IMG/VR virus record: IMGVR_UViG_3300001528_000208
Location: 1-64,000 of that record
Length of the DNA stretch: 64,000 bases
Direction: 5' to 3' (one strand)
From: a virus
Taxonomy: Duplodnaviria > Caudoviricetes
Every line of letters begins with the position of its first letter. Within the stretch, counting starts at the first letter, position 1. The notes beneath the pieces are model-generated. The model ran no database searches, was not told the origin of the DNA, and saw only the letters and a program-made list of their open reading frames with translations. Of this stretch, positions 3,277-41,956 are shown one piece after another. Position numbers and translations under genes: made by a program.

Positions 3277-3843
3277 GTGGATATCAAAGTTATCCCGCTT
3301 ACCGACGATTCTGCTGTTTTGAATACTGCTCGCATTACAGTCTGGAAGGACGATGCAGAAAATGCGCCATCAGAAAAGTTTATGCGAGACATCTACTTCA
3401 AGGAACATTCACCAATTCGCGCAAAAGAGTTCTTGATTGAAATTCGTGGCGTTAAATCGTGGATTGCAACGCATCTATGTCGGCATTCTGTTGGATATAC
3501 TCCATATATCAGCACGCAGCGCGACGATAGGCACAAGTCAGACATTCCGCGCGACGAACTTCCGCAGGGCGCGTTTGTAAACATGGATATTGTTCTTAAT
3601 GCGCAGGCGTTTATAAACGTCAGTCGCAAAAGGCTTTGCAACATGGCGCACGCAGAAACGCAGGCGGTATGGCGAAGCGTAATTAAAGAACTTGACAAGG
3701 TTGACCATAATCTTGCAAGCTGTTGTGTTCGCGAATGTGTTTATCGTGGTGGAATTTGCCCCGAATGCGAAAAGTCTTGCCATTTCAACAAGACTGACGC
3801 CTTCGGTCGTGAAATTCAAAAATACTTGGAAGGTCGTGGTTAA
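3277..3843 (+). CDS. thyX: flavin-dependent thymidylate synthase
   Basis: EHSP...HLCRH...STQR, KRLC...AHAET motifs. Confidence 0.8.
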   Translation: MDIKVIPLTDDSAVLNTARITVWKDDAENAPSEKFMRDIYFKEHSPIRAKEFLIEIRGVKSWIATHLCRHSVGYTPYISTQRDDRHKSDIPRDELPQGAFVNMDIVLNAQAFINVSRKRLCNMAHAETQAVWRSVIKELDKVDHNLASCCVRECVYRGGICPECEKSCHFNKTDAFGREIQKYLEGRG

Positions 3844-4269
3844 TTGAATATTGTTCTTATTGGAAAGATTGGAAGCGGCGTTGACGACATTGCAAAGCGT
3901 CTGACGGACTATTTCCGATACGAAGTATCTGATAGTGATGTTGACGATTTCAAAGTCTTTGTTGTTGAACCGTCAGAACTGCGAAAGATGCAGACAGATA
4001 AGGACACGGACTTTGTTTCGTTCTTCGTAACGCGCGGAACCTATAAGCGATTTAGGTATTGTATTGATAATTGCATGGACGAAGAAGAAGTCCTTTCTAA
4101 AATCATGATGGAAGCACACAAGTATGATTCGCTTCACGTTGACTTCACTGTTGAAAACGAAGATAACGACACTTGGTCTGCCGTAACCGAAATTCTTAGA
4201 TGCGTTAAGGATGTGGTTGATTGTTCGCACCAAAACTCTACAAAGTCAGAAAGCTGCCCGCAAGCGTAA
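3844..4269 (+). CDS. degenerate guanylate-kinase-like P-loop protein
   Basis: IVLIGKIGSGVD resembles a kinase P-loop without the Lys; short, NMP-binding part apparently missing. Confidence 0.45.
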   Translation: MNIVLIGKIGSGVDDIAKRLTDYFRYEVSDSDVDDFKVFVVEPSELRKMQTDKDTDFVSFFVTRGTYKRFRYCIDNCMDEEEVLSKIMMEAHKYDSLHVDFTVENEDNDTWSAVTEILRCVKDVVDCSHQNSTKSESCPQA

Positions 4270-6932
4270 TAATCAATAACGATTACGATGCGCGTATAGA
4301 TAATGCTGAATACACTGTTTCGCAAAAAGAAGAAATTAAACACATGGTCATTGATGGCTTTGTTCTTAACGGCGTGAAGTTCGTAATGAGTGAACGAAGT
4401 GCCAGTATGACAAGAAATGCAATCCTTGGCTTTATTGATGCTTCTGTTGCTGGAAAAGTCGATAAGCATATTACAATGGATTTGGAAATGAAAAAGACGG
4501 TTCTTTCAAAGTGGTGCGCTTATCGTGGTCTTATGTTTAGTTCATGCCATTGTCTTGACGGCTGGCATCCCAAGACAATCGTTGTGCCTGACTACGAAAC
4601 CGTAGTTCCACATCAGAAGCTTCGTTGGTTGGTAGAAGAAGAACGCGAATATGCTGACAAGGAAACTGGCGAAAAGCGTGTCTGGAAAACACATGGAATC
4701 GAAGAGGGGTACAAGGACGTTCCGATAAACGTTTTCGACGGGCACGGATTTATTCATCCAGCGCTTGTTGATGAAGTTCGCGACCGCATTGGAATGGAAG
4801 AACGTCCTACGACCATGATGTTGCGTGCGCCTTTCATCAAAGGTCTTGTTAGCGAAATGGACTACACGACCTACTATCACGACCACGATGTTGACTTCAT
4901 TCAAGACGTTTGGGGCAAATGGCATTCTGTCGATGAACCAATGATTGTTCTGACAGTTAGTATGTATAAGGGGTTTAAGTATTTCAAACAGACCGGCACC
5001 AACCAAGATTGGGATAACTACTGGAGTAAATTTCAGAAGTATGGGCACTGCTGGGGTGTTGCCAAGTGGAATTTTACAGAAGAACAAGAACCCGTGTATA
5101 CTCGTGGCAACTACCAGATTCTGCAAGACCTTGACTTGCCATTTGAAGAATTCCAGAAGCTTGCAAGCAAGTCAATGAACTGGGCGGAAAAGATTGTTAA
5201 TGGAGACCCATTTTACACATACTGTTTCCTTGGTCTGGCGAATGATAATCCGAAGCCGCTTAACAACTATGCACGCGCCATCATGAAGAATCCTGAAATG
5301 ATGAAGGAACAAAGTGTTCGCGACTTTCTGAAGCGTCAAGTCAGAAAGTACATTGATAGCATGAAGTGTGGAAAGATTTATCTTCGTGCTTGCTACAAAT
5401 TCCTTATTCCAGACCTAATCATGATGCTTGAATGGATTGGTGGCGATAAGAACCCAAAAGGCGCCCTTGAAGCTGATGAATTTTGGGCTAAGGGTTACGA
5501 AGGTGAACACGCCATTGAACGTAACCCGCATATTTGTAAAAGCGAACATCTTATCCTTAAAGCCAAGCACACCGACGAACTTGAACGCTACTGTGGTCAT
5601 TTGGTGAATACTTGTATGCTGAATGGTAAAAGTCCAAGTCCGCAACGAATGAACGGTGCCGATTAGCACCTTAAAATAGTCCGCCTATGTGGTAACATAT
5701 AGGTTGTACGGCGTGAACCCTTATCAGGGGTGTCAAAGCGACGATTAGTAATCGCAGGAAATGGCGACCAACGCTTTGGCTAACAGGGAAGGCTACTTGA
5801 TAATCCTGTGCCAAGCCTTAAATGGAAGGTCAAGAGACTAACGGTGATGAGTGTAACCGTGTACGGCAGCTATTGATACGCCGCTGGAAGTGCGCCGCCG
5901 CCCTATGGGTGGAAGATATAGTCCACTGTGAGAACAGTGTATGACGGAGATTTAGTTCTTCTGATGGATGAACCCTTATTCCTTGAAGGAACCGATAAAG
6001 ATTGTGCAATCGTTCTTAATCTTGACGAAAAGCTTACTGCGCTTGCGGAAGATGTCACAATCGAAAACATTGCAAGTCTTGTTGAACGAACTCTTGTATC
6101 GTTGATTGGCGAAGATTCAAATGCGGCAACGTGTTATCATAACAAAATCACAAAAAAGGAAAGCCAACAGAAGCGTTACGAAACGTATGTTGATATTCTT
6201 TCGATTGTTAATTCGTTCGCAATCGACTTTGCCAAGACTGGCTACATCATGCAGATTCCGTTTGAAATAGCAAAGTATTCCAAACCATATCCATACTTCA
6301 TGCGATATGTTGGTGAATACTACAACAAGCTGTTTGAATCAATGGAACGTTCGCAAAGCACATACCGTTTTAGTCGTTCACGAAGCAACATGAACCAGCT
6401 TGCGTTCATGATTGAAAAGTTTCACGACCGTGAAATCAAATGGAAGCGTGCAGATGCGTTTGATTACACGATTATGGTTGATAGCGATGTTGAAGTTTTG
6501 CCCGAACATTTTGAAGCTATCGAAAGCGTGTATAAAGACTTCAACAAAGAAATGAAGTATCTTGTCACATTTGAAAACAAGCTTCATCGCTATGATGAAT
6601 TCAAAGACGAACTGAAGGCGTGGGACAAGGAGTCTGCAATGAACTATTACGTTAATTGGGATTCTGTGTACTCAAAGTATAGAAACGAATGCGCAAAGAT
6701 TTGTCCTGACAAGAAAGAACTTGCCAACATCGCAGTTAAGCTGTGTTATGAAAAGTATCCGAAACGCGGAAAGAAGTTTATCTGGTCTTGTGCATCCGAA
6801 GGTGTGCTTGAAAATATCAAACAGGTAGAAATCATGTTGCCTGTAAAAAATCCAACTGGCGAATACGCATACCTTGGTAAGCGGTATGATATGATTGTAT
6901 ATAATGGTGAAACGGTTGGTTTAGACGGCTGA
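4221..6932 (+). CDS. YonO-like single-subunit RNA polymerase (cellular-RdRP fold); spliced, exons 4221-5663 + 5940-6932, about 811 aa
   Basis: FDGHG, RAPFIKG, RNPH motifs; joining the exons restores GADYDGD (DxDGD metal-binding site); position upstream of HU-like and head genes matches SPbeta yonO. Confidence 0.88.
5664..5939 (+). ncRNA. group I intron (276 nt, no ORF) in RNAP gene
   Basis: Exon ends in U, intron ends in G; P7 GACTA/TAGTC; S element AAGATATAGTCC; IGS ATAGTCCGC (5676-5684) pairs across the joined exons. Confidence 0.9.
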
Positions 6933-6991
6933 CCGTTTCAGATATAATTGAATATAATACTTTATATACATCGCATAAGTATGCCTACTAA

Positions 6992-7639
6992 ATGGTGCCA
7001 TTTTTCGTCATGAAAGGACGGCTTATATTGTTCAACGAATTCGAAGAAGTGCAGGAATATCTCGCTGGTAAAAAGGTGACTCGCTACTGCCTTGACGAAT
7101 ACATTTTTAAAATTGCCCGATACATGAAGGAAGAAGGCAAACCCGCGCAGTATACAAAAGACTTTGTTGCCAAATGGCTTGAAGGTCTTGGGTATAGGTT
7201 CGCCAACTACAATCTTACCATAATGAACGCCTACGCAAAGCGTGGTAAGATGAAACGTGACTTCTGTGTAAGAATTAACAATGAAGACATTGAAAAGATT
7301 AAGTATGCTGCTGACTATGGACGGTCTAAGCGACTTGCTTTGTTTCTTCTGATTTACGCAAAGATTCACGCAGACCATGATGGAAACTTTAAGATTAGAC
7401 TTCCAATGGTTTCTGAATGGGTTGGTATTGACCGTTCTCATTTGTATGCAAGGCACCTGAAAGAACTCATTTGTTTCGGTTTTATTGAAAAGACCGACAA
7501 TGATAAAGACTATGCGAAGAATACCGCCGACGGGAGATTCGCCCACCTTAGAATCACCTATGAACTTTCGAATACCGGCGATTATGTTATTGAACGAAAC
7601 GAAGATTTCGACAAGCTGTATCACGAAATCTTTGGCTGA
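6992..7639 (+). CDS. hypothetical protein, possibly winged-helix DNA-binding
   Basis: ORF with HTH-like C-terminal half. Confidence 0.55.
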   Translation: MVPFFVMKGRLILFNEFEEVQEYLAGKKVTRYCLDEYIFKIARYMKEEGKPAQYTKDFVAKWLEGLGYRFANYNLTIMNAYAKRGKMKRDFCVRINNEDIEKIKYAADYGRSKRLALFLLIYAKIHADHDGNFKIRLPMVSEWVGIDRSHLYARHLKELICFGFIEKTDNDKDYAKNTADGRFAHLRITYELSNTGDYVIERNEDFDKLYHEIFG

Positions 7640-9728: not shown

Positions 9729-10850
9729 GTGAGAAAGACCAAAACTATGGATAGGTCGGCACCGCTGACCATTGCCGAAGCAAAAGCGAAAGACCGCGAT
9801 ATCCGAAAGAAGAAGTGTCGTTACTGCACAAACGAAAAGGATATTAAGCGATTCTATAAAAGCTACGATTTCTTAGATACTGATGGGAGACTTTCCGTGT
9901 GCATCGACTGCTGCACATACTTGTTTAATTATTTTTATCAGATGCACGGTCGCATTGATATTGCGATTTACGAAGTTTGTCGCTGTCTGAACTATCGTTA
10001 CGATAGTCGTGCATATAGTATGCTGATGAAGGCGCTTGAAAAGAATGGTATGCAGGCGACAGTAAATGCAATCAATGGCGTTGAAGAAGAAGAAACCGAA
10101 ACTGACATTGATAAAGTTGCGGTTAATACAAAAACGTCTTTGTTTGGCAAATACCTTACAATCCTTCAGGGTGTTTATCGTACTAACGAAGAAGCCGACT
10201 TGACGTTCGACGTTTACAAGAACGACCGTCCCGAAGGCTACGAAGACAAGACTACCGACAAGCCTGTTACAGAAGTTATCGAACAAGCCTATAACAAGAA
10301 AATGTCTGCGCTTGAAAAGAAGTGGGGCACTGGCTTTGAAGACGACGATTACGTATTCCTTGAAAACGAATACAACGAATGGGCTAAGACGAAAGACACC
10401 GATGAAAAGGGTGTTGATATGCTTATCAAGGAAGTATGCTTGCAACAGCTAAAGATGCGTAAGACGCGCGAAGCTGGCGATGAACTTAAAAAGTCGGACT
10501 ATGAGACGCTTACCATGCTGATGGATAAGTGTTCGATTACTCCTGATAAGCTAAAAGAAAGTTCCAGCAATAAGTCTACTGCCGCATTTGGCATCTGGCT
10601 TAAAGACGTTGAAACGCTTTCTCCTGCTGAATGGCTTGAAAACAAAAAGCTGTTTAAGGATGTTGAAGGCATTGACGAATACGTTAAGCGCACCTATGAC
10701 CGCGCTGTTCGTAATTATATTGGTATGTCGCGCGATTTCCGCGTCGTAATGGACAAGATGGATAAGGAAGCTGAAGACTTCAAGCCTGAAGATATCAGCG
10801 GCGTCTATCTTGATGTTGATGGTGATGACGATGGCGAGAAACACGACTAA
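9729..10850 (+). CDS. Zn-finger protein preceding terminase (YonG-like, possible small terminase subunit)
   Basis: CRYC...CIDC, KKWG motif; directly upstream of TerL. Confidence 0.55.
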   Translation: MRKTKTMDRSAPLTIAEAKAKDRDIRKKKCRYCTNEKDIKRFYKSYDFLDTDGRLSVCIDCCTYLFNYFYQMHGRIDIAIYEVCRCLNYRYDSRAYSMLMKALEKNGMQATVNAINGVEEEETETDIDKVAVNTKTSLFGKYLTILQGVYRTNEEADLTFDVYKNDRPEGYEDKTTDKPVTEVIEQAYNKKMSALEKKWGTGFEDDDYVFLENEYNEWAKTKDTDEKGVDMLIKEVCLQQLKMRKTREAGDELKKSDYETLTMLMDKCSITPDKLKESSSNKSTAAFGIWLKDVETLSPAEWLENKKLFKDVEGIDEYVKRTYDRAVRNYIGMSRDFRVVMDKMDKEAEDFKPEDISGVYLDVDGDDDGEKHD

Positions 10851-13800
10851 CTACAATCCGTTTGGTAGTAATGCAAATTCTGCGGATATTCGCAAAAGAC
10901 CGCGTGGCATTATTAAAAAGACGGAAATTAGCGAGAGTCGCCTGAAACGAATCAAGGATTGGGCAACGCTATATCGGCGCAACATTCAGCTGTATGCTGA
11001 ACACTATTTTCAAATCAAGACGCTTCACGACTATCAGAAGATGATGCTGTACGAAATTGGTGCGAAAGATGAAATTACCATTTCAGCATCTCGTGCAACT
11101 GCAAAGTCGTGGATTGTTGGTCTTGGCGCTATCTGCATTGCGTCTCTTTATCCTAAAAGCGAAATCGTCATTGTTGCATCGACCAAAGGTCAGGCTGGCG
11201 TTATCGTTGGCAAGATTCAAGGCTTCTACGACGACTATCCGAATATCCAGCGTGAAATCACGAAGATAACTAACAATGAAAACAACCGTATTGTTGAATT
11301 CTTAAATGGTTCCAAAATTACGGTTGTTGCGCTTTCGGATAACTCTCGTGGTATTCGTTCGACCTGTATTATTCGCGAAGAATGCAACAGCATGAAGCGT
11401 AAGGATTTGCTTGACTCTGTTATCGCACCTATGCGCTATGTTCGTCCCGCGCCTTTCCGACGATTACCGCAATACAGCCATCTGACAGAAGAGTCGAAGA
11501 TGATTTCGATTAGTTCTGCTGGATTGAAAATAAACTGGTGGTATCCATACACGCTTCAACAGATTGTTATTAGCGTGTTTGGCGATAAGACTGGTATTCA
11601 GTCTAAGGACAGCACGGTGTTCATGGCATTTGACTATTTGACAAGTCTCGAACATGGCATCAAGTCGCCGCGTGAAATTGCGTCTGAACGTAAAGCGTCT
11701 GACTATATATCATTAAGTTTTATACTTACTTAGTGCGCTACAACGGGAAACCTTGTAGTGTATGTTCCTGAATTGCTGGAAAACCCTTAGAGCTTTACAG
11801 CCACAACGAAAGAATGAAACACGTCTAATCGTGAAGGTTGAAAATTGTAAAGATTGGGCAATCAGCAGCGAAGCCCCGAACAGGGGAACGTTCAACGACC
11901 ATCCGCTGAAATGCGGTTAGGCACAAGTGTGCCGAAGTGGGAACCGCCTAAACCGAAAGGCATGGCGAATGATATGGTCTATACATATATGAAAGTATAT
12001 GCACACATTTAATCGGATTTTTAAAGCTGGACAGCGGAGTAGCTACCGTTTTCTACACCCTTCGTAGAATTACAGCTTTGAAAATAAATATACTTGAAGG
12101 GGATTTATTATGTTATCGGTCAATGAAAGGAATTTGAAAATCGTTGAATCTTATCAAAGTGGCAAAAATTTGAACGATGTGTCCAATGAATTTGGTGTAT
12201 CCGTTGGAACGGTTTTAGCTGTTTTACAAGAAGCAAATGTTTCTATCAGAAAATATAGAAAAGGTCGTTCTAAATTTACGCCAGAACAAGACGCCGACAT
12301 TGTTGAAAGATATAAAAATGGAGAAAAGACGTGCGATATAGCAAAATTATACAATGTTAGCCAAAGCTGTATCGTATATAGACTTCATAGAAGTGGTGTC
12401 GTGCTTGTTACAAAGGTTGACGACTCTGTTTTTGATAAGATAGATAGCGAAGAAAAGGCATACTATTTTGGACTTATCTGTGCGGACGGCTGGATTTCAA
12501 AGCTTGACACGACGCCATATGTTGGACTTTATCTAAAGGCAGAAGATAAAAATATCGTAGAAGGATTTATGAAAATGTTCTGCGACAAGAAGATACGTCC
12601 TGTTAAGCATGACGGTGTTGTTGTCGGCTATCAGGCTGATGTATATTCCAAACGGCTTGTACAAAAGCTTATTGAATATGGCATTGATAATGATAAGTCT
12701 CATACGTTAAAGTTTCCGACTTGTGTGCCAGAAGATTATTTATGCGACTTTGTTCGCGGATATTTTGATGGCGATGGAAGCATTTCTGGCTATCAAACAT
12801 CGTTTGTTGGGACAAAGTGGTTTATAGAAGAACTTATTCAGATTATGTCCAAGAACGCAAATGTTAGCAACAGGGTTACACCTTTTCCCGTAAACGCTGA
12901 TAAGGGGAATGTGATTACGAAGTCTATTGCGTGGTCTGGAATAAATCAGGCAAAAAAGATTCGCGACTGGATGTATAGGAATGGTTCTTCAACGATTTAT
13001 ATAAAAAGAAAACATGACCGATATTATTCCATTGATTAAATGTGTGGGGCGTGTCTAACGAACGCGTCTTACTGAAATAGTTTCTACTGAGTACCAAAAT
13101 TTGCCTTATGGCATTGATGAGAACGCATTCTTTTCTTATGATGACTTTGATAAAGCGCGTGTTTTGAAGCAGGCGTTCTATCCGAAGCGCCCCGAAGAAG
13201 TTGCTTCTGGAAAACAGAAGTATCGTATGCCAAAGGTTGCCGGCGAAATTCGTTTGGTCGGTGTTGACTTGGCGTCTTCTGCCGCTCGTGGTTCGGATAA
13301 CACGGCAATCAATGTCGCGCGACTTATTCCGAAGCGCGGAAAAGGATATGAACGACAGGTTGTGTATTCTGAAATTTCCAATGGTGTTGGTGCTCCTGCA
13401 CAGGCGCTTCGTATTCGTCAAATTATGACGGATTTTGAAGCGGATACGCTTGTAATGGACTTCCGAAATCTTGGTAATGCGATTTTCAATATCATGACCG
13501 ATGTTATCCATGATGATATTCGTGGTATTGACTATCCGCCAATAACGGTTGCTTATCATGAAACCATCGCGCATAAATACGAAGAGTATATGCAACAGAC
13601 AATCAATCCCAATGCGATTCCTTGCATCTATCCTATTTATGGTACTGCCGAACTGAATAGTAAGATGGCAGTTATCTTTAAGGATAAACTGAAGACTGGC
13701 ATGATTAAGCTTCTTGAACAGCCAGACGAAGTTGAAAAGGACTTTGCAAAGGATATTGGCTTTAGATTCTACACTGACGAAGTTGGCGATTGGGGTGGAA

Positions 13801-14084
13801 GACCTTGGTTGCTTGCTCCGTTTGAACAAACTACACAACTTATCAACGAAGCGCTTGCGCTTACTGTATATGTTGTTGGCGGTAATTTCCGACTTGTTGA
13901 GCCGAAGCGCTTGACAAAAGACCGAATCGTTTCTTTGATTTATTTGAACTATTACGCATCCCTTCTTGATACCGAACTGTTGAAGGGATTGAATGACGAC
14001 GATATGTATTCTGCTATTTCAAGTATGAATAGAAGCCTTTCGTCTTCAAGAAACGGAAACAAATTCGGACGATTCTTTAGATGA
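10831..14084 (+). CDS. terminase large subunit; spliced, exons 10831-11713 + 13081-14084, about 628 aa
   Basis: ASRATAKS Walker A, IIREE Walker B, ISSA, nuclease GVDLA and KDR; exon join reads DYISF-STEYQN in frame. Confidence 0.9.
11714..13080 (+). ncRNA. group I intron in terminase gene carrying a homing endonuclease ORF
   Basis: P1 CATTAAGT/ACTTAGTG with U.G at splice site; P AATTGCTGGAAA, Q AATCAGCAG; P7 GACCA/TGGTC; terminal G at 13080. Confidence 0.9.
12110..13039 (+). CDS. intron-encoded LAGLIDADG homing endonuclease with N-terminal HTH repeats
   Basis: YYFGLICADG and FVRGYFDGDG motifs. Confidence 0.88.
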   Translation: MLSVNERNLKIVESYQSGKNLNDVSNEFGVSVGTVLAVLQEANVSIRKYRKGRSKFTPEQDADIVERYKNGEKTCDIAKLYNVSQSCIVYRLHRSGVVLVTKVDDSVFDKIDSEEKAYYFGLICADGWISKLDTTPYVGLYLKAEDKNIVEGFMKMFCDKKIRPVKHDGVVVGYQADVYSKRLVQKLIEYGIDNDKSHTLKFPTCVPEDYLCDFVRGYFDGDGSISGYQTSFVGTKWFIEELIQIMSKNANVSNRVTPFPVNADKGNVITKSIAWSGINQAKKIRDWMYRNGSSTIYIKRKHDRYYSID

Positions 14085-40559: not shown

Positions 40560-40786
40560 ATTCGATAGTATTGGGTTAATCAAAAACTTCTTGAAAGTTT
40601 TACGACCCTTATTAAAGGAGAAGCATTTCCCGTGAAGGTGTATTCCTTCCAAAACAACCCCGCGATACTGTTGCACGGACGCTTCTTGCATGGTCGAAAG
40701 GCAAATTCGATTTCATGTGTAACAGTTATGCAAGTAATCTATGCGGGATTGGTTATACCAAGTCTTGTACACGGGGTATTTTATTT

Positions 40787-41956
40787 ATGAATAGTGCGCA
40801 AAGACACGAATTTCGATATTATAGGCGTAAAGAAAAGCGTCTTTCGAAAAAGATTAAACGATGCGAAGCTATCGGTGGAATAGATGGTGTATTTACATTT
40901 GGCGATTTATATAAATGCGGCAAAGCGTGCTGTAATGGCGTTCGGTGGAAGCATAGTGTGCAAAATTTCGAAATGCACTTGTTTTCAACTACGGTTAAAT
41001 CGTTGGCTGACGTAAAGAACGATAAATGGGAAAGCAACGAATATTTCAGATTTGTTTTAACGGAACGTGGTAAAACACGCGATATTGATGCGCCCAAAAT
41101 TGTTGACAGGCAAATCCATAAAGCTATTACGCGAAACATTCTTTTGCCGTTATATACACCAATGATGATTTACAATAATGGGGCAAGTCAAAAAGGAAAG
41201 GGATTCCACTTTAGCTCAAATGAACTGAAGAAAGATTTGCGTGAACATTTTAGGAAGTATGGTCGTGAAGGTTGGATACTTCTAATTGATTTCAAGAAAT
41301 TTTTTCCAAACGCAAAACACGCAAATATATACAATAATCATGAAGAATTAATTTTTGATGAAAGATTGCGTAGATTGTGTGATTATGTTGTTGGATTTAA
41401 CAATAATTCTGGATTTGGTATGCCGCTTGGCGTAGAACCAAGTCAAGCGGAAATGATTTTCTTCCCATGGAAACTTGATTGCTATTTAACGTGCCAATGT
41501 GGATTTAGTGGATGCGGTCACTATATGGATGACTATTATATTATAATACCGCCAACGATGAATCCGCATGATGTTCGTGCGAAAGTATTATCTTTTGCCG
41601 AATCGCTTGGAATAAGAGTAAATCGCGATAAATCATACTTCGTTAAACTTACAAAATCGTTCCGATATTGTAAAATACGATATCGACTTACGGATACTGG
41701 TGCCGTTAAAACACTTGGTAGTAGACCTGCTTATAGGCGAGCTGCAAGGAAAATTCGTGCATTTAAACGCATGGTGGACGAAGGCAAAATGAAATATGAG
41801 GATGTCTACTGTTCTATGAATTCTATAATATCGTATTTCGATAATTTCGACGACAATAACCGTTCTTTTAGATTGAAACGATTGTTTGTTAAAACGTTTG
41901 GATTTAAATATGACGACCTAATGACATTTAGAAGGAGGGATTTCTATAATGTATAA
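40787..41956 (+). CDS. DGR reverse transcriptase
   Basis: ERGK.R.I, DR..H, KGKG.HF, IDFKKFF, GMPLG...SQ, YMDD. Confidence 0.93.
   Translation: MNSAQRHEFRYYRRKEKRLSKKIKRCEAIGGIDGVFTFGDLYKCGKACCNGVRWKHSVQNFEMHLFSTTVKSLADVKNDKWESNEYFRFVLTERGKTRDIDAPKIVDRQIHKAITRNILLPLYTPMMIYNNGASQKGKGFHFSSNELKKDLREHFRKYGREGWILLIDFKKFFPNAKHANIYNNHEELIFDERLRRLCDYVVGFNNNSGFGMPLGVEPSQAEMIFFPWKLDCYLTCQCGFSGCGHYMDDYYIIIPPTMNPHDVRAKVLSFAESLGIRVNRDKSYFVKLTKSFRYCKIRYRLTDTGAVKTLGSRPAYRRAARKIRAFKRMVDEGKMKYEDVYCSMNSIISYFDNFDDNNRSFRLKRLFVKTFGFKYDDLMTFRRRDFYNV

Follow-up and report, generated by a model that had tools for sequence, protein, structure and literature searches.

In an uncultured gut phage, the gene for a YonO-type RNA polymerase is interrupted inside the codons of its catalytic motif by a 276-nt insert, which we read as a mobile, selfish group I intron that is very probably spliced out to restore the motif. 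The phage is represented by a 104.8-kb IMG/VR virus record (IMGVR_UViG_3300001528_000208), of which we analysed positions 1 to 64,000 (hereafter the window). Coordinates are those of the window unless another sequence is named, and the polymerase gene and the elements of its insert all lie on the plus strand.

The first exon (4221–5663) has a TTG start and 481 codons that end in NGAD. As an open reading frame (ORF) it occupies 4221–5666, encodes 481 amino acids with the C terminus RMNGAD and is closed by a TAG codon at 5664–5666. The same frame picks up at 5940 as YDGDLVLL, the start of a second exon (5940–6932) of 330 codons plus a stop codon at 6930–6932. Joining 5663 to 5940 gives an 811-amino-acid protein in which ADYDGD occupies residues 480–485 and DYDGD residues 481–485; the catalytic D-x-D-G-D triad is complete only once both exons are joined. 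An initial annotation, made without database searches, had given the same ORF end, insert length, coordinates and GCCGAT/TATGAC junction, all of which are correct by direct reading. It had also proposed that unspliced RNA gives a catalytically dead fragment, in keeping with a predicted product of 481 amino acids that retains only one of the three catalytic aspartates.

A sister phage (L006; IMGVR_UViG_3300012344_000001), with ~85% DNA identity across the polymerase gene, has the same gene in one piece. Its sequence aligns to window positions 4322–5665 and then from 5940 on, with nothing in between, and exon 2 is collinear with L006 from position 5546 of the latter. Where the window reads GCCGAT, the insert and then TATGAC, L006 reads GCTGAC/TATGAC and encodes an uninterrupted NGADYDGD. 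The insert is exactly 276 nt long (5664–5939), is preceded by U5663, ends in G5939 and is absent to the base in L006. A 2-nt ambiguity in its boundaries is settled because only 5664–5939 both follows a U and ends in a G, the group I rule. Given that L006 carries the same gene uninterrupted, the insertion is, on this comparison, not due to chance. The first codon of the insert is the in-frame UAG stop (5664–5666), which is read directly, and relatives also have early in-frame stops. With a longest internal ORF of 40 amino acids (5822–5944), the insert encodes no endonuclease, as had been annotated.

The two halves of the gene fall end to end on a single PHROG and on a single Pfam family. Exon 1 matches positions 116–529 of the 847 in phrog_8308 (E = 1.8e-63) and exon 2 positions 552–824 (E = 9.6e-16). 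Each scanned alone against the Pfam family RdRP (PF05183), the halves cover positions 51–360 and 437–580 of 582 and score 22.4 and 19.7 bits, below the cut-off of 23.8. By tblastn, exon 1 is 28.5% identical to yonO of SPBc2 (E = 5e-24) and 28–29% identical to the relatives of yonO (E about 1e-24). Genes nearer than yonO are found among phages of Thomasclavelia and Enterocloster, with an identity of 41.8% for gp3 of Thomasclavelia phage TR-TP1; the N terminus MFAPKLY is common to the relatives. The joined protein aligns with YonO by blastp in a single high-scoring segment that crosses the joint, as the initial annotation expected of the 811-residue product (residues 39–776 against 126–791, E = 2e-38). 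At the joint itself, NGAD/YDGD faces NGCDFDGD in TR-TP1 gp3 and QFDNDGD in YonO. A profile of exon 1 relatives retrieved no solved structure from the PDB at E values up to 1. Together, these matches support the assignment of the host gene to the YonO-type two-barrel RNA polymerases. The triad of aspartates in YonO is catalytic, and the late operon of SPbeta is transcribed by this enzyme (Forrest et al. 2017, PMC5467207); by analogy with this 26–28%-identical relative, the present polymerase may also serve late transcription. Apart from the insert, the gene lacks, close to the N terminus, 33 in-frame codons after YTVSQ (window position about 4324) that are found in L006 (4104–4203) and in most relatives, and the same segment is apparently also missing from TR-TP1 gp3, judged from match length only.

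Homologous sequences in other phages identify the insert. Its core (5798–5894) is ~76% identical to intervening sequences in Lactococcus phage 38502 and Streptococcus phage Str-PAP-1, and Staphylococcus phage PMBT8 has a comparable stretch between two unnamed ORFs. A 17-nt core motif retrieved more than 113 viral contigs. From these we aligned 20 non-redundant relatives and left the window sequence out; the ~230 alignment positions outside the retrieval motif are independent of the window, whereas the motif is not. A profile of these relatives finds window positions 5673–5926 by nhmmer (E = 1.9e-32, profile positions 9–244 of 247). Two of the 20, L103 (73.7 bits) and L095 (64.1 bits), pass the threshold of the Rfam group I model RF00028 over the full model. 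Among 33 inserts at the same site in relatives whose boundaries were mapped, all 33 are preceded by GAT and end in G.

The alignment also supports a group I fold. RNAalifold predicts P2, P3, two extra hairpins, P4, P5, P6, P7.2 and P8 from the 20 relatives, with compensatory changes in 32 of 45 pairs. We then drew a structure from the present intron alone, in which P7 forms a pseudoknot, and tallied its pairs over 27 sequences; the paired fraction of cells is 87.4%, compared with 66.4% in shuffles and 32–43% when the partners are slid. Both sides have changed in 45 of 64 pairs, and none of 500 shuffles reaches the observed values. Together with the L006 allele and the profile match, this covariation supports what had first been read from the bare sequence, that a group I intron splits the polymerase gene after the first aspartate of the D-x-D-G-D motif.

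Element by element, the insert has legible P, Q, R and S core elements, and the putative ribozyme is of a subgroup IA-like type. The internal guide sequence (5676–5684) consists of AUA (5676–5678), which would form P10 with the UAU of exon 2, and GUCCGC (5679–5684), the guide strand of P1. P2 (5684–5703) has 8 bp and a GUAA tetraloop; all eight pairs show compensatory changes, and the single-sequence fold recovers it. The P3 5′ strand CGGCGUG (5709–5715) pairs with 5891–5897; it is paired in 97.9% of cells, covaries in five of seven pairs and is predicted by RNAalifold from the relatives, without the window sequence. Between P3 and the joining segment J3/4 lie hairpin A (5718–5721 with 5726–5729) and stem B (5732–5740 with 5772–5780), which together span 5718–5780. 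At the base of stem B, five pairs form in 100% of cells, three of them with compensatory changes, and the inner hairpin of the stem (5752–5767) carries a AGGAAAUG loop. The P4–P5–P6 domain (5783–5830) comprises P4 (ACAGGG/UCCUGU, 5783–5788 with 5804–5809, 99.4% paired), a very short P5 and P6 (GCCUU/AAGGU, 5815–5819 with 5826–5830). The P7 5′ strand GACUA (5836–5840) pairs with UAGUC (5919–5923) in a pseudoknot with P3; it is paired in 100% of cells and nearly invariant, and a AAGAUAUAGUC element is readable ahead of the UAGUC/GACUA pairing. P7.1 (5842–5845 with 5856–5859) and P7.2 (5865–5870 with 5880–5885) follow at 5842–5885, both with compensatory changes. The P3 3′ strand (5891–5897) and P8 (5898–5903 with 5907–5912) occupy 5891–5912, and all six P8 pairs covary. 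The P9 hairpin (5925–5929 with 5934–5938, GAGA loop), read directly and recovered by the fold, leads into the terminal G5939 (5925–5939).

The position of P7.1 and P7.2, between P7 and the P3 3′ strand, is reportedly a hallmark of subgroup IA, and in this respect the insert agrees with subgroup IA2. It departs from IA2 in the link between P3 and P4, which is more than a short J3/4, the hairpins at 5718–5780 standing in the way. Across the family the layout runs from the P3 5′ strand through UGAAC and two hairpins to a J3/4 of GCUAAC, with UAA before P4; shorter relatives (L068, L082 and L059) have no such hairpins, and P3 runs via UGAAAA straight to P4. A subset of the family, including the present copy, shares the conserved inner hairpin with its AGGAAAUG loop after ACGA(A/U)UAG.

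P1 is formed by the guide and the end of exon 1 (GCCGAU, 5658–5663, paired with 5679–5684), with the splice site after U5663. Its pairs are U.G (U5663 with G5679), A-U, G-C, C.C, C-G and G-C; the single C.C mismatch, C5660 opposite C5682, had been noted in the initial annotation. P1 covaries across the family (CGAU/GUCG, GGAU/GUCC, UGAU/GUCA and CCAU/GUGG), and in relatives a GUCCG(C) guide faces GCGGAU in perfect pairing. The mismatch therefore stems from the synonymous GCC alanine codon of the present phage, as the guide fits GCG. The 5′ splice site also lies in the loop of a possible hairpin, GGUGC/GCACC (5655–5670; 5655–5659 with 5666–5670), which is suggestive only; its strands are exon bases −9 to −5 and intron bases +3 to +7. 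Relatives show 3–5 bp of similar exon–intron pairing, in which changes at the glycine wobble base are matched in the intron. The helix averages 3.44 bp within its own lineage and 2.56 bp in mixed lineages (n = 9, varying register), a difference too weak for the hairpin to be kept as an established element. The hairpin may act as a clamp, or else compete with P1. We consider it very unlikely that the hairpin is functional and conserved, whether as a switch or as a clamp pseudoknotted with a 3-bp P1; in that case splicing and the supply of polymerase could be tunable. If it were functional, the intron lineage would use an exon-binding mode that has not been described for group I introns.

Several observations weigh against a group I intron that splices. 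RF00028 gives the insert 11.7 bits, compared with a cut-off of 50, and matches only 5783–5841 (P4–P6 and the start of P7). At the gathering threshold, Rfam found another intron and an RT-2 RNA in the whole window and missed the one at 5664–5939. The two hairpins between P3 and J3/4 lie outside the canonical group I plan. The minimum-energy single-sequence fold recovers the same helices, but its z score of −1.57 is not significantly better than that of shuffles, and for this reason the fold is no evidence on its own. P1 is predicted at −3.9 kcal/mol with the C.C mismatch, compared with −9.4 for a GCG codon, and it competes with the splice-site hairpin, whose local fold is predicted at −8.0 kcal/mol. 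Four public RNA runs (5–9% of sampled words; 85% likeness) gave contigs of relatives only, of which one crosses from exon 1 to the intron and none joins 5663 to 5940, a result that speaks neither for nor against splicing.

The low Rfam score is the sole point in favour of some other small insertion that is not an intron. RF00028 missed 11 of the 14 family loci scanned, probably because of the two extra hairpins and the very short P5. The initial annotation had looked to group I models as a check, and the outcome is divided: the core helices are present and two relatives pass the threshold, whereas the intron itself does not. Against a non-intron insertion stand the profile match to a family with members that do pass, the covariation of the drawn structure, the U and G boundary rule in every mapped relative, and a frame that is restored exactly with its catalytic motif rebuilt. 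We give this explanation practically no weight.

The weakened P1 bears instead on whether the intron splices. The gene could be a pseudogene in which the intron splices poorly or not at all, or the 481-amino-acid ORF and a 334-amino-acid ORF that starts at GTG 5928 could form a split enzyme. Such a reading would account for the mismatch in a short P1, the sub-threshold Rfam score, the presence of the GTG-started ORF (5928–6932) and the lack of exon-joined RNA among the relatives' contigs from the public runs. However, all core helices are intact and match a family under clear structural constraint, and both exons are otherwise free of lesions and collinear with relatives. In a split enzyme, the catalytic motif would span two chains, with its first aspartate as a C-terminal residue, and GTG 5928 falls within P9, with nothing better than a poor GGUGG ~15 nt upstream. 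Failure to splice therefore seems to us very unlikely. Slow splicing is a separate matter: with a weak P1 and a competing hairpin, the predicted energies suggest that splicing in this phage could be slowed.

To see where such introns occur, we used exon 1 relatives, with an alignment of 7 closer sequences, and fetched 80 related polymerase genes (44–89% identity), 78 of which could be scored; many come from one large metagenome and are not independent lineages. An insert is found at residue 481/482 in 38 of the 78 and is absent there in 40. A second site, near residue 576/577, is filled in 36; 28 genes have both sites occupied and 32 have neither. Occupancy is patchy even inside one 48%-identity cluster. 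The inserts at residue 481/482 fall into two size classes, one of 241–306 nt without an ORF and one of about 790–820 nt with an HNH_3 ORF of 163–198 amino acids. The HNH_3 ORFs occur in L153/L039, L150 and L143, and in the L153/L039 and L150 types they sit in the P6 loop. The ORF in L153 spans 6734–7225. A distant gene (L051, 23% identical) carries a family intron at the same D/YDGD position. A broad pattern search for further introns at this site returned mostly an unrelated coding cluster (LCGAD), and these matches were discarded.

The second hot spot, at codons 576/577 (window about 6222–6227, AID/FAK), is empty in the present phage. In relatives it holds inserts of 245–1440 nt (L146, L149 and L185 among its occupants), of which at least those of L034 and L035 are members of the same RNA family. 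A different intron, with an ORF encoding NUMOD4 and HNH domains, is found at DYD/GD in L147 (6579–7535) and in four others (including L148, L162 and L184). As this position is two codons downstream, two unrelated introns target one catalytic motif, 6 nt apart.

A conserved target in an essential gene, patchy occupancy, versions with and without an endonuclease and unrelated neighbours at adjacent positions point to a homing intron family. Judged from its sequence, the intron described here is a mobile, selfish, endonuclease-less element of a familiar kind; a homing endonuclease was either lost from this copy or absent from the start. The intron's place in the best-conserved codons of the gene would reflect where such endonucleases cut.

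This distribution also bears on the boldest proposal of the initial annotation, that all late transcription depends on one self-splicing event, which might act as a checkpoint. In this scheme, a weak P1 and a hidden 5′ splice site would make splicing conditional and so gate the polymerase and late transcription. The incomplete active site of the unspliced product, the cost of the mismatch to P1, the more stable competing hairpin and the recurrence in relatives of complementarity between the upstream exon and the 5′ end of the intron are all compatible with it. Yet the ~85%-identical sister phage and the 32 relatives with neither site filled have no intron at all, and occupancy varies within a single cluster. 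The checkpoint is unsupported because close relatives manage without the intron. Versions at the same site carry HNH homing endonucleases, the mismatch looks left over from a guide that fits the GCG codon of other hosts, and the hairpin statistic is weak. We regard a regulatory checkpoint as highly unlikely.

The preferred reading, a selfish intron that is removed by splicing, would work as follows. The pre-mRNA would fold into a subgroup-IA-like ribozyme made of P1–P2, the P3–P8 and P4–P6 domains, the P7/P3 pseudoknot, P7.1/P7.2 and P9. A ribosome on exon 1 would halt at the UAG with which the intron begins and so be kept out of the ribozyme; an early in-frame stop that keeps ribosomes off the ribozyme is the usual arrangement. 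A free guanosine would attack after U5663, in the U.G pair of P1, and the freed 3′ OH would attack after G5939. GCCGAU would thereby be joined to UAUGAC, ADYDGD restored and the 811-amino-acid polymerase made. The intron would be neutral as long as it splices.

Introns at comparable positions are known from jumbo phages. In Pseudomonas phage PhiPA3, a group I intron with the HNH endonuclease gp210 lies in a beta-subunit RNA polymerase gene (Birkholz et al. 2024, PMC11620839), and phage 201phi2-1 has a mobile intron between gp273 and gp274 (PMC2919709). As here, these are group I introns in the gene of a phage two-barrel RNA polymerase, right after conserved catalytic-site aspartates, and relatives of the present intron have an HNH endonuclease as the PhiPA3 intron does. 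The hosts differ: theirs are the multi-subunit polymerases of jumbo phages, whereas ours is a single-chain YonO-type enzyme. A further difference is that, without an endonuclease, the present copy would be unable to attack a co-infecting phage. The motif itself is shared more widely, as QDE-1 has the same DYDGD (PMC2919709).

Among the subgroup IA2 introns, those of T4 td, Twort orf142 and the SPO1 DNA polymerase share with the present one the 5′ U.G pair, terminal G, P3/P7 pseudoknot and P4–P6, as well as P7.1/P7.2, an A-rich J3/4 and GNRA loops on P2 and P9. They also share an early in-frame stop and insertion into conserved codons of an essential gene. The present intron differs from them in its two extra hairpins between P3 and J3/4, its very short P5 and its low RF00028 score. 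The intervening sequences of phages 38502 and Str-PAP-1 are of the same RNA family, with the same P3, extra hairpins and P7.1/P7.2, but lie in tape-measure genes and have adjoining HNH endonuclease ORFs.

SPbeta YonO is homologous to the present polymerase over nearly its full length and has the same D-x-D-G-D triad, but yonO is uninterrupted there, and the late-transcription role is known for SPbeta only. In Bacillus phages vB_BsuS-Goe11 and Goe14 (MT601272 and OL580764), yonO is also split by a precise insertion with a homing-endonuclease ORF. That insertion differs in lying after YonO residue 625, in its length of 1290 nt and in encoding a GIY-YIG/NUMOD3/HTH protein (L008 4501–5790 in Goe14; L009 in Goe11). 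Rfam found no intron in the yonO insert of either phage, and the GenBank records list only yonO_1 and yonO_2, with no comment. The literature that we searched contained no paper linking YonO-type genes with introns.

The window holds further features of the same phage. Its large terminase gene is also split, with an N-terminal ATPase part at 10810–11733 and a presumed C-terminal part, without a Pfam hit, at 13101–14084. A group I intron core at 11718–12001 passes the Rfam threshold at 62 bits and is followed by a 309-amino-acid ORF with HTH and LAGLIDADG-like regions (12110–13039). The group I introns of the phage therefore number at least two, and one of them has an endonuclease. The RT-2 RNA (RF03077, 104.7 bits), of a type found alongside reverse transcriptases, lies at 40571–40797. 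Upstream of the polymerase gene, an ORF at 3277–3843 partially matches ThyX (PF02511), over the C-terminal part of the profile only.

No new mechanism is proposed here: group I introns in conserved codons of essential phage genes, including those for RNA polymerase, are well known. The practical consequence is that gene callers will list this polymerase as two unrelated ORFs, and that the Rfam group I model misses this intron lineage. For the biology of the family, the survey marks out the YonO-type polymerase genes of phages from gut and rumen as a hot spot for introns, with two main sites, each of which is filled in nearly half of the 78 genes.

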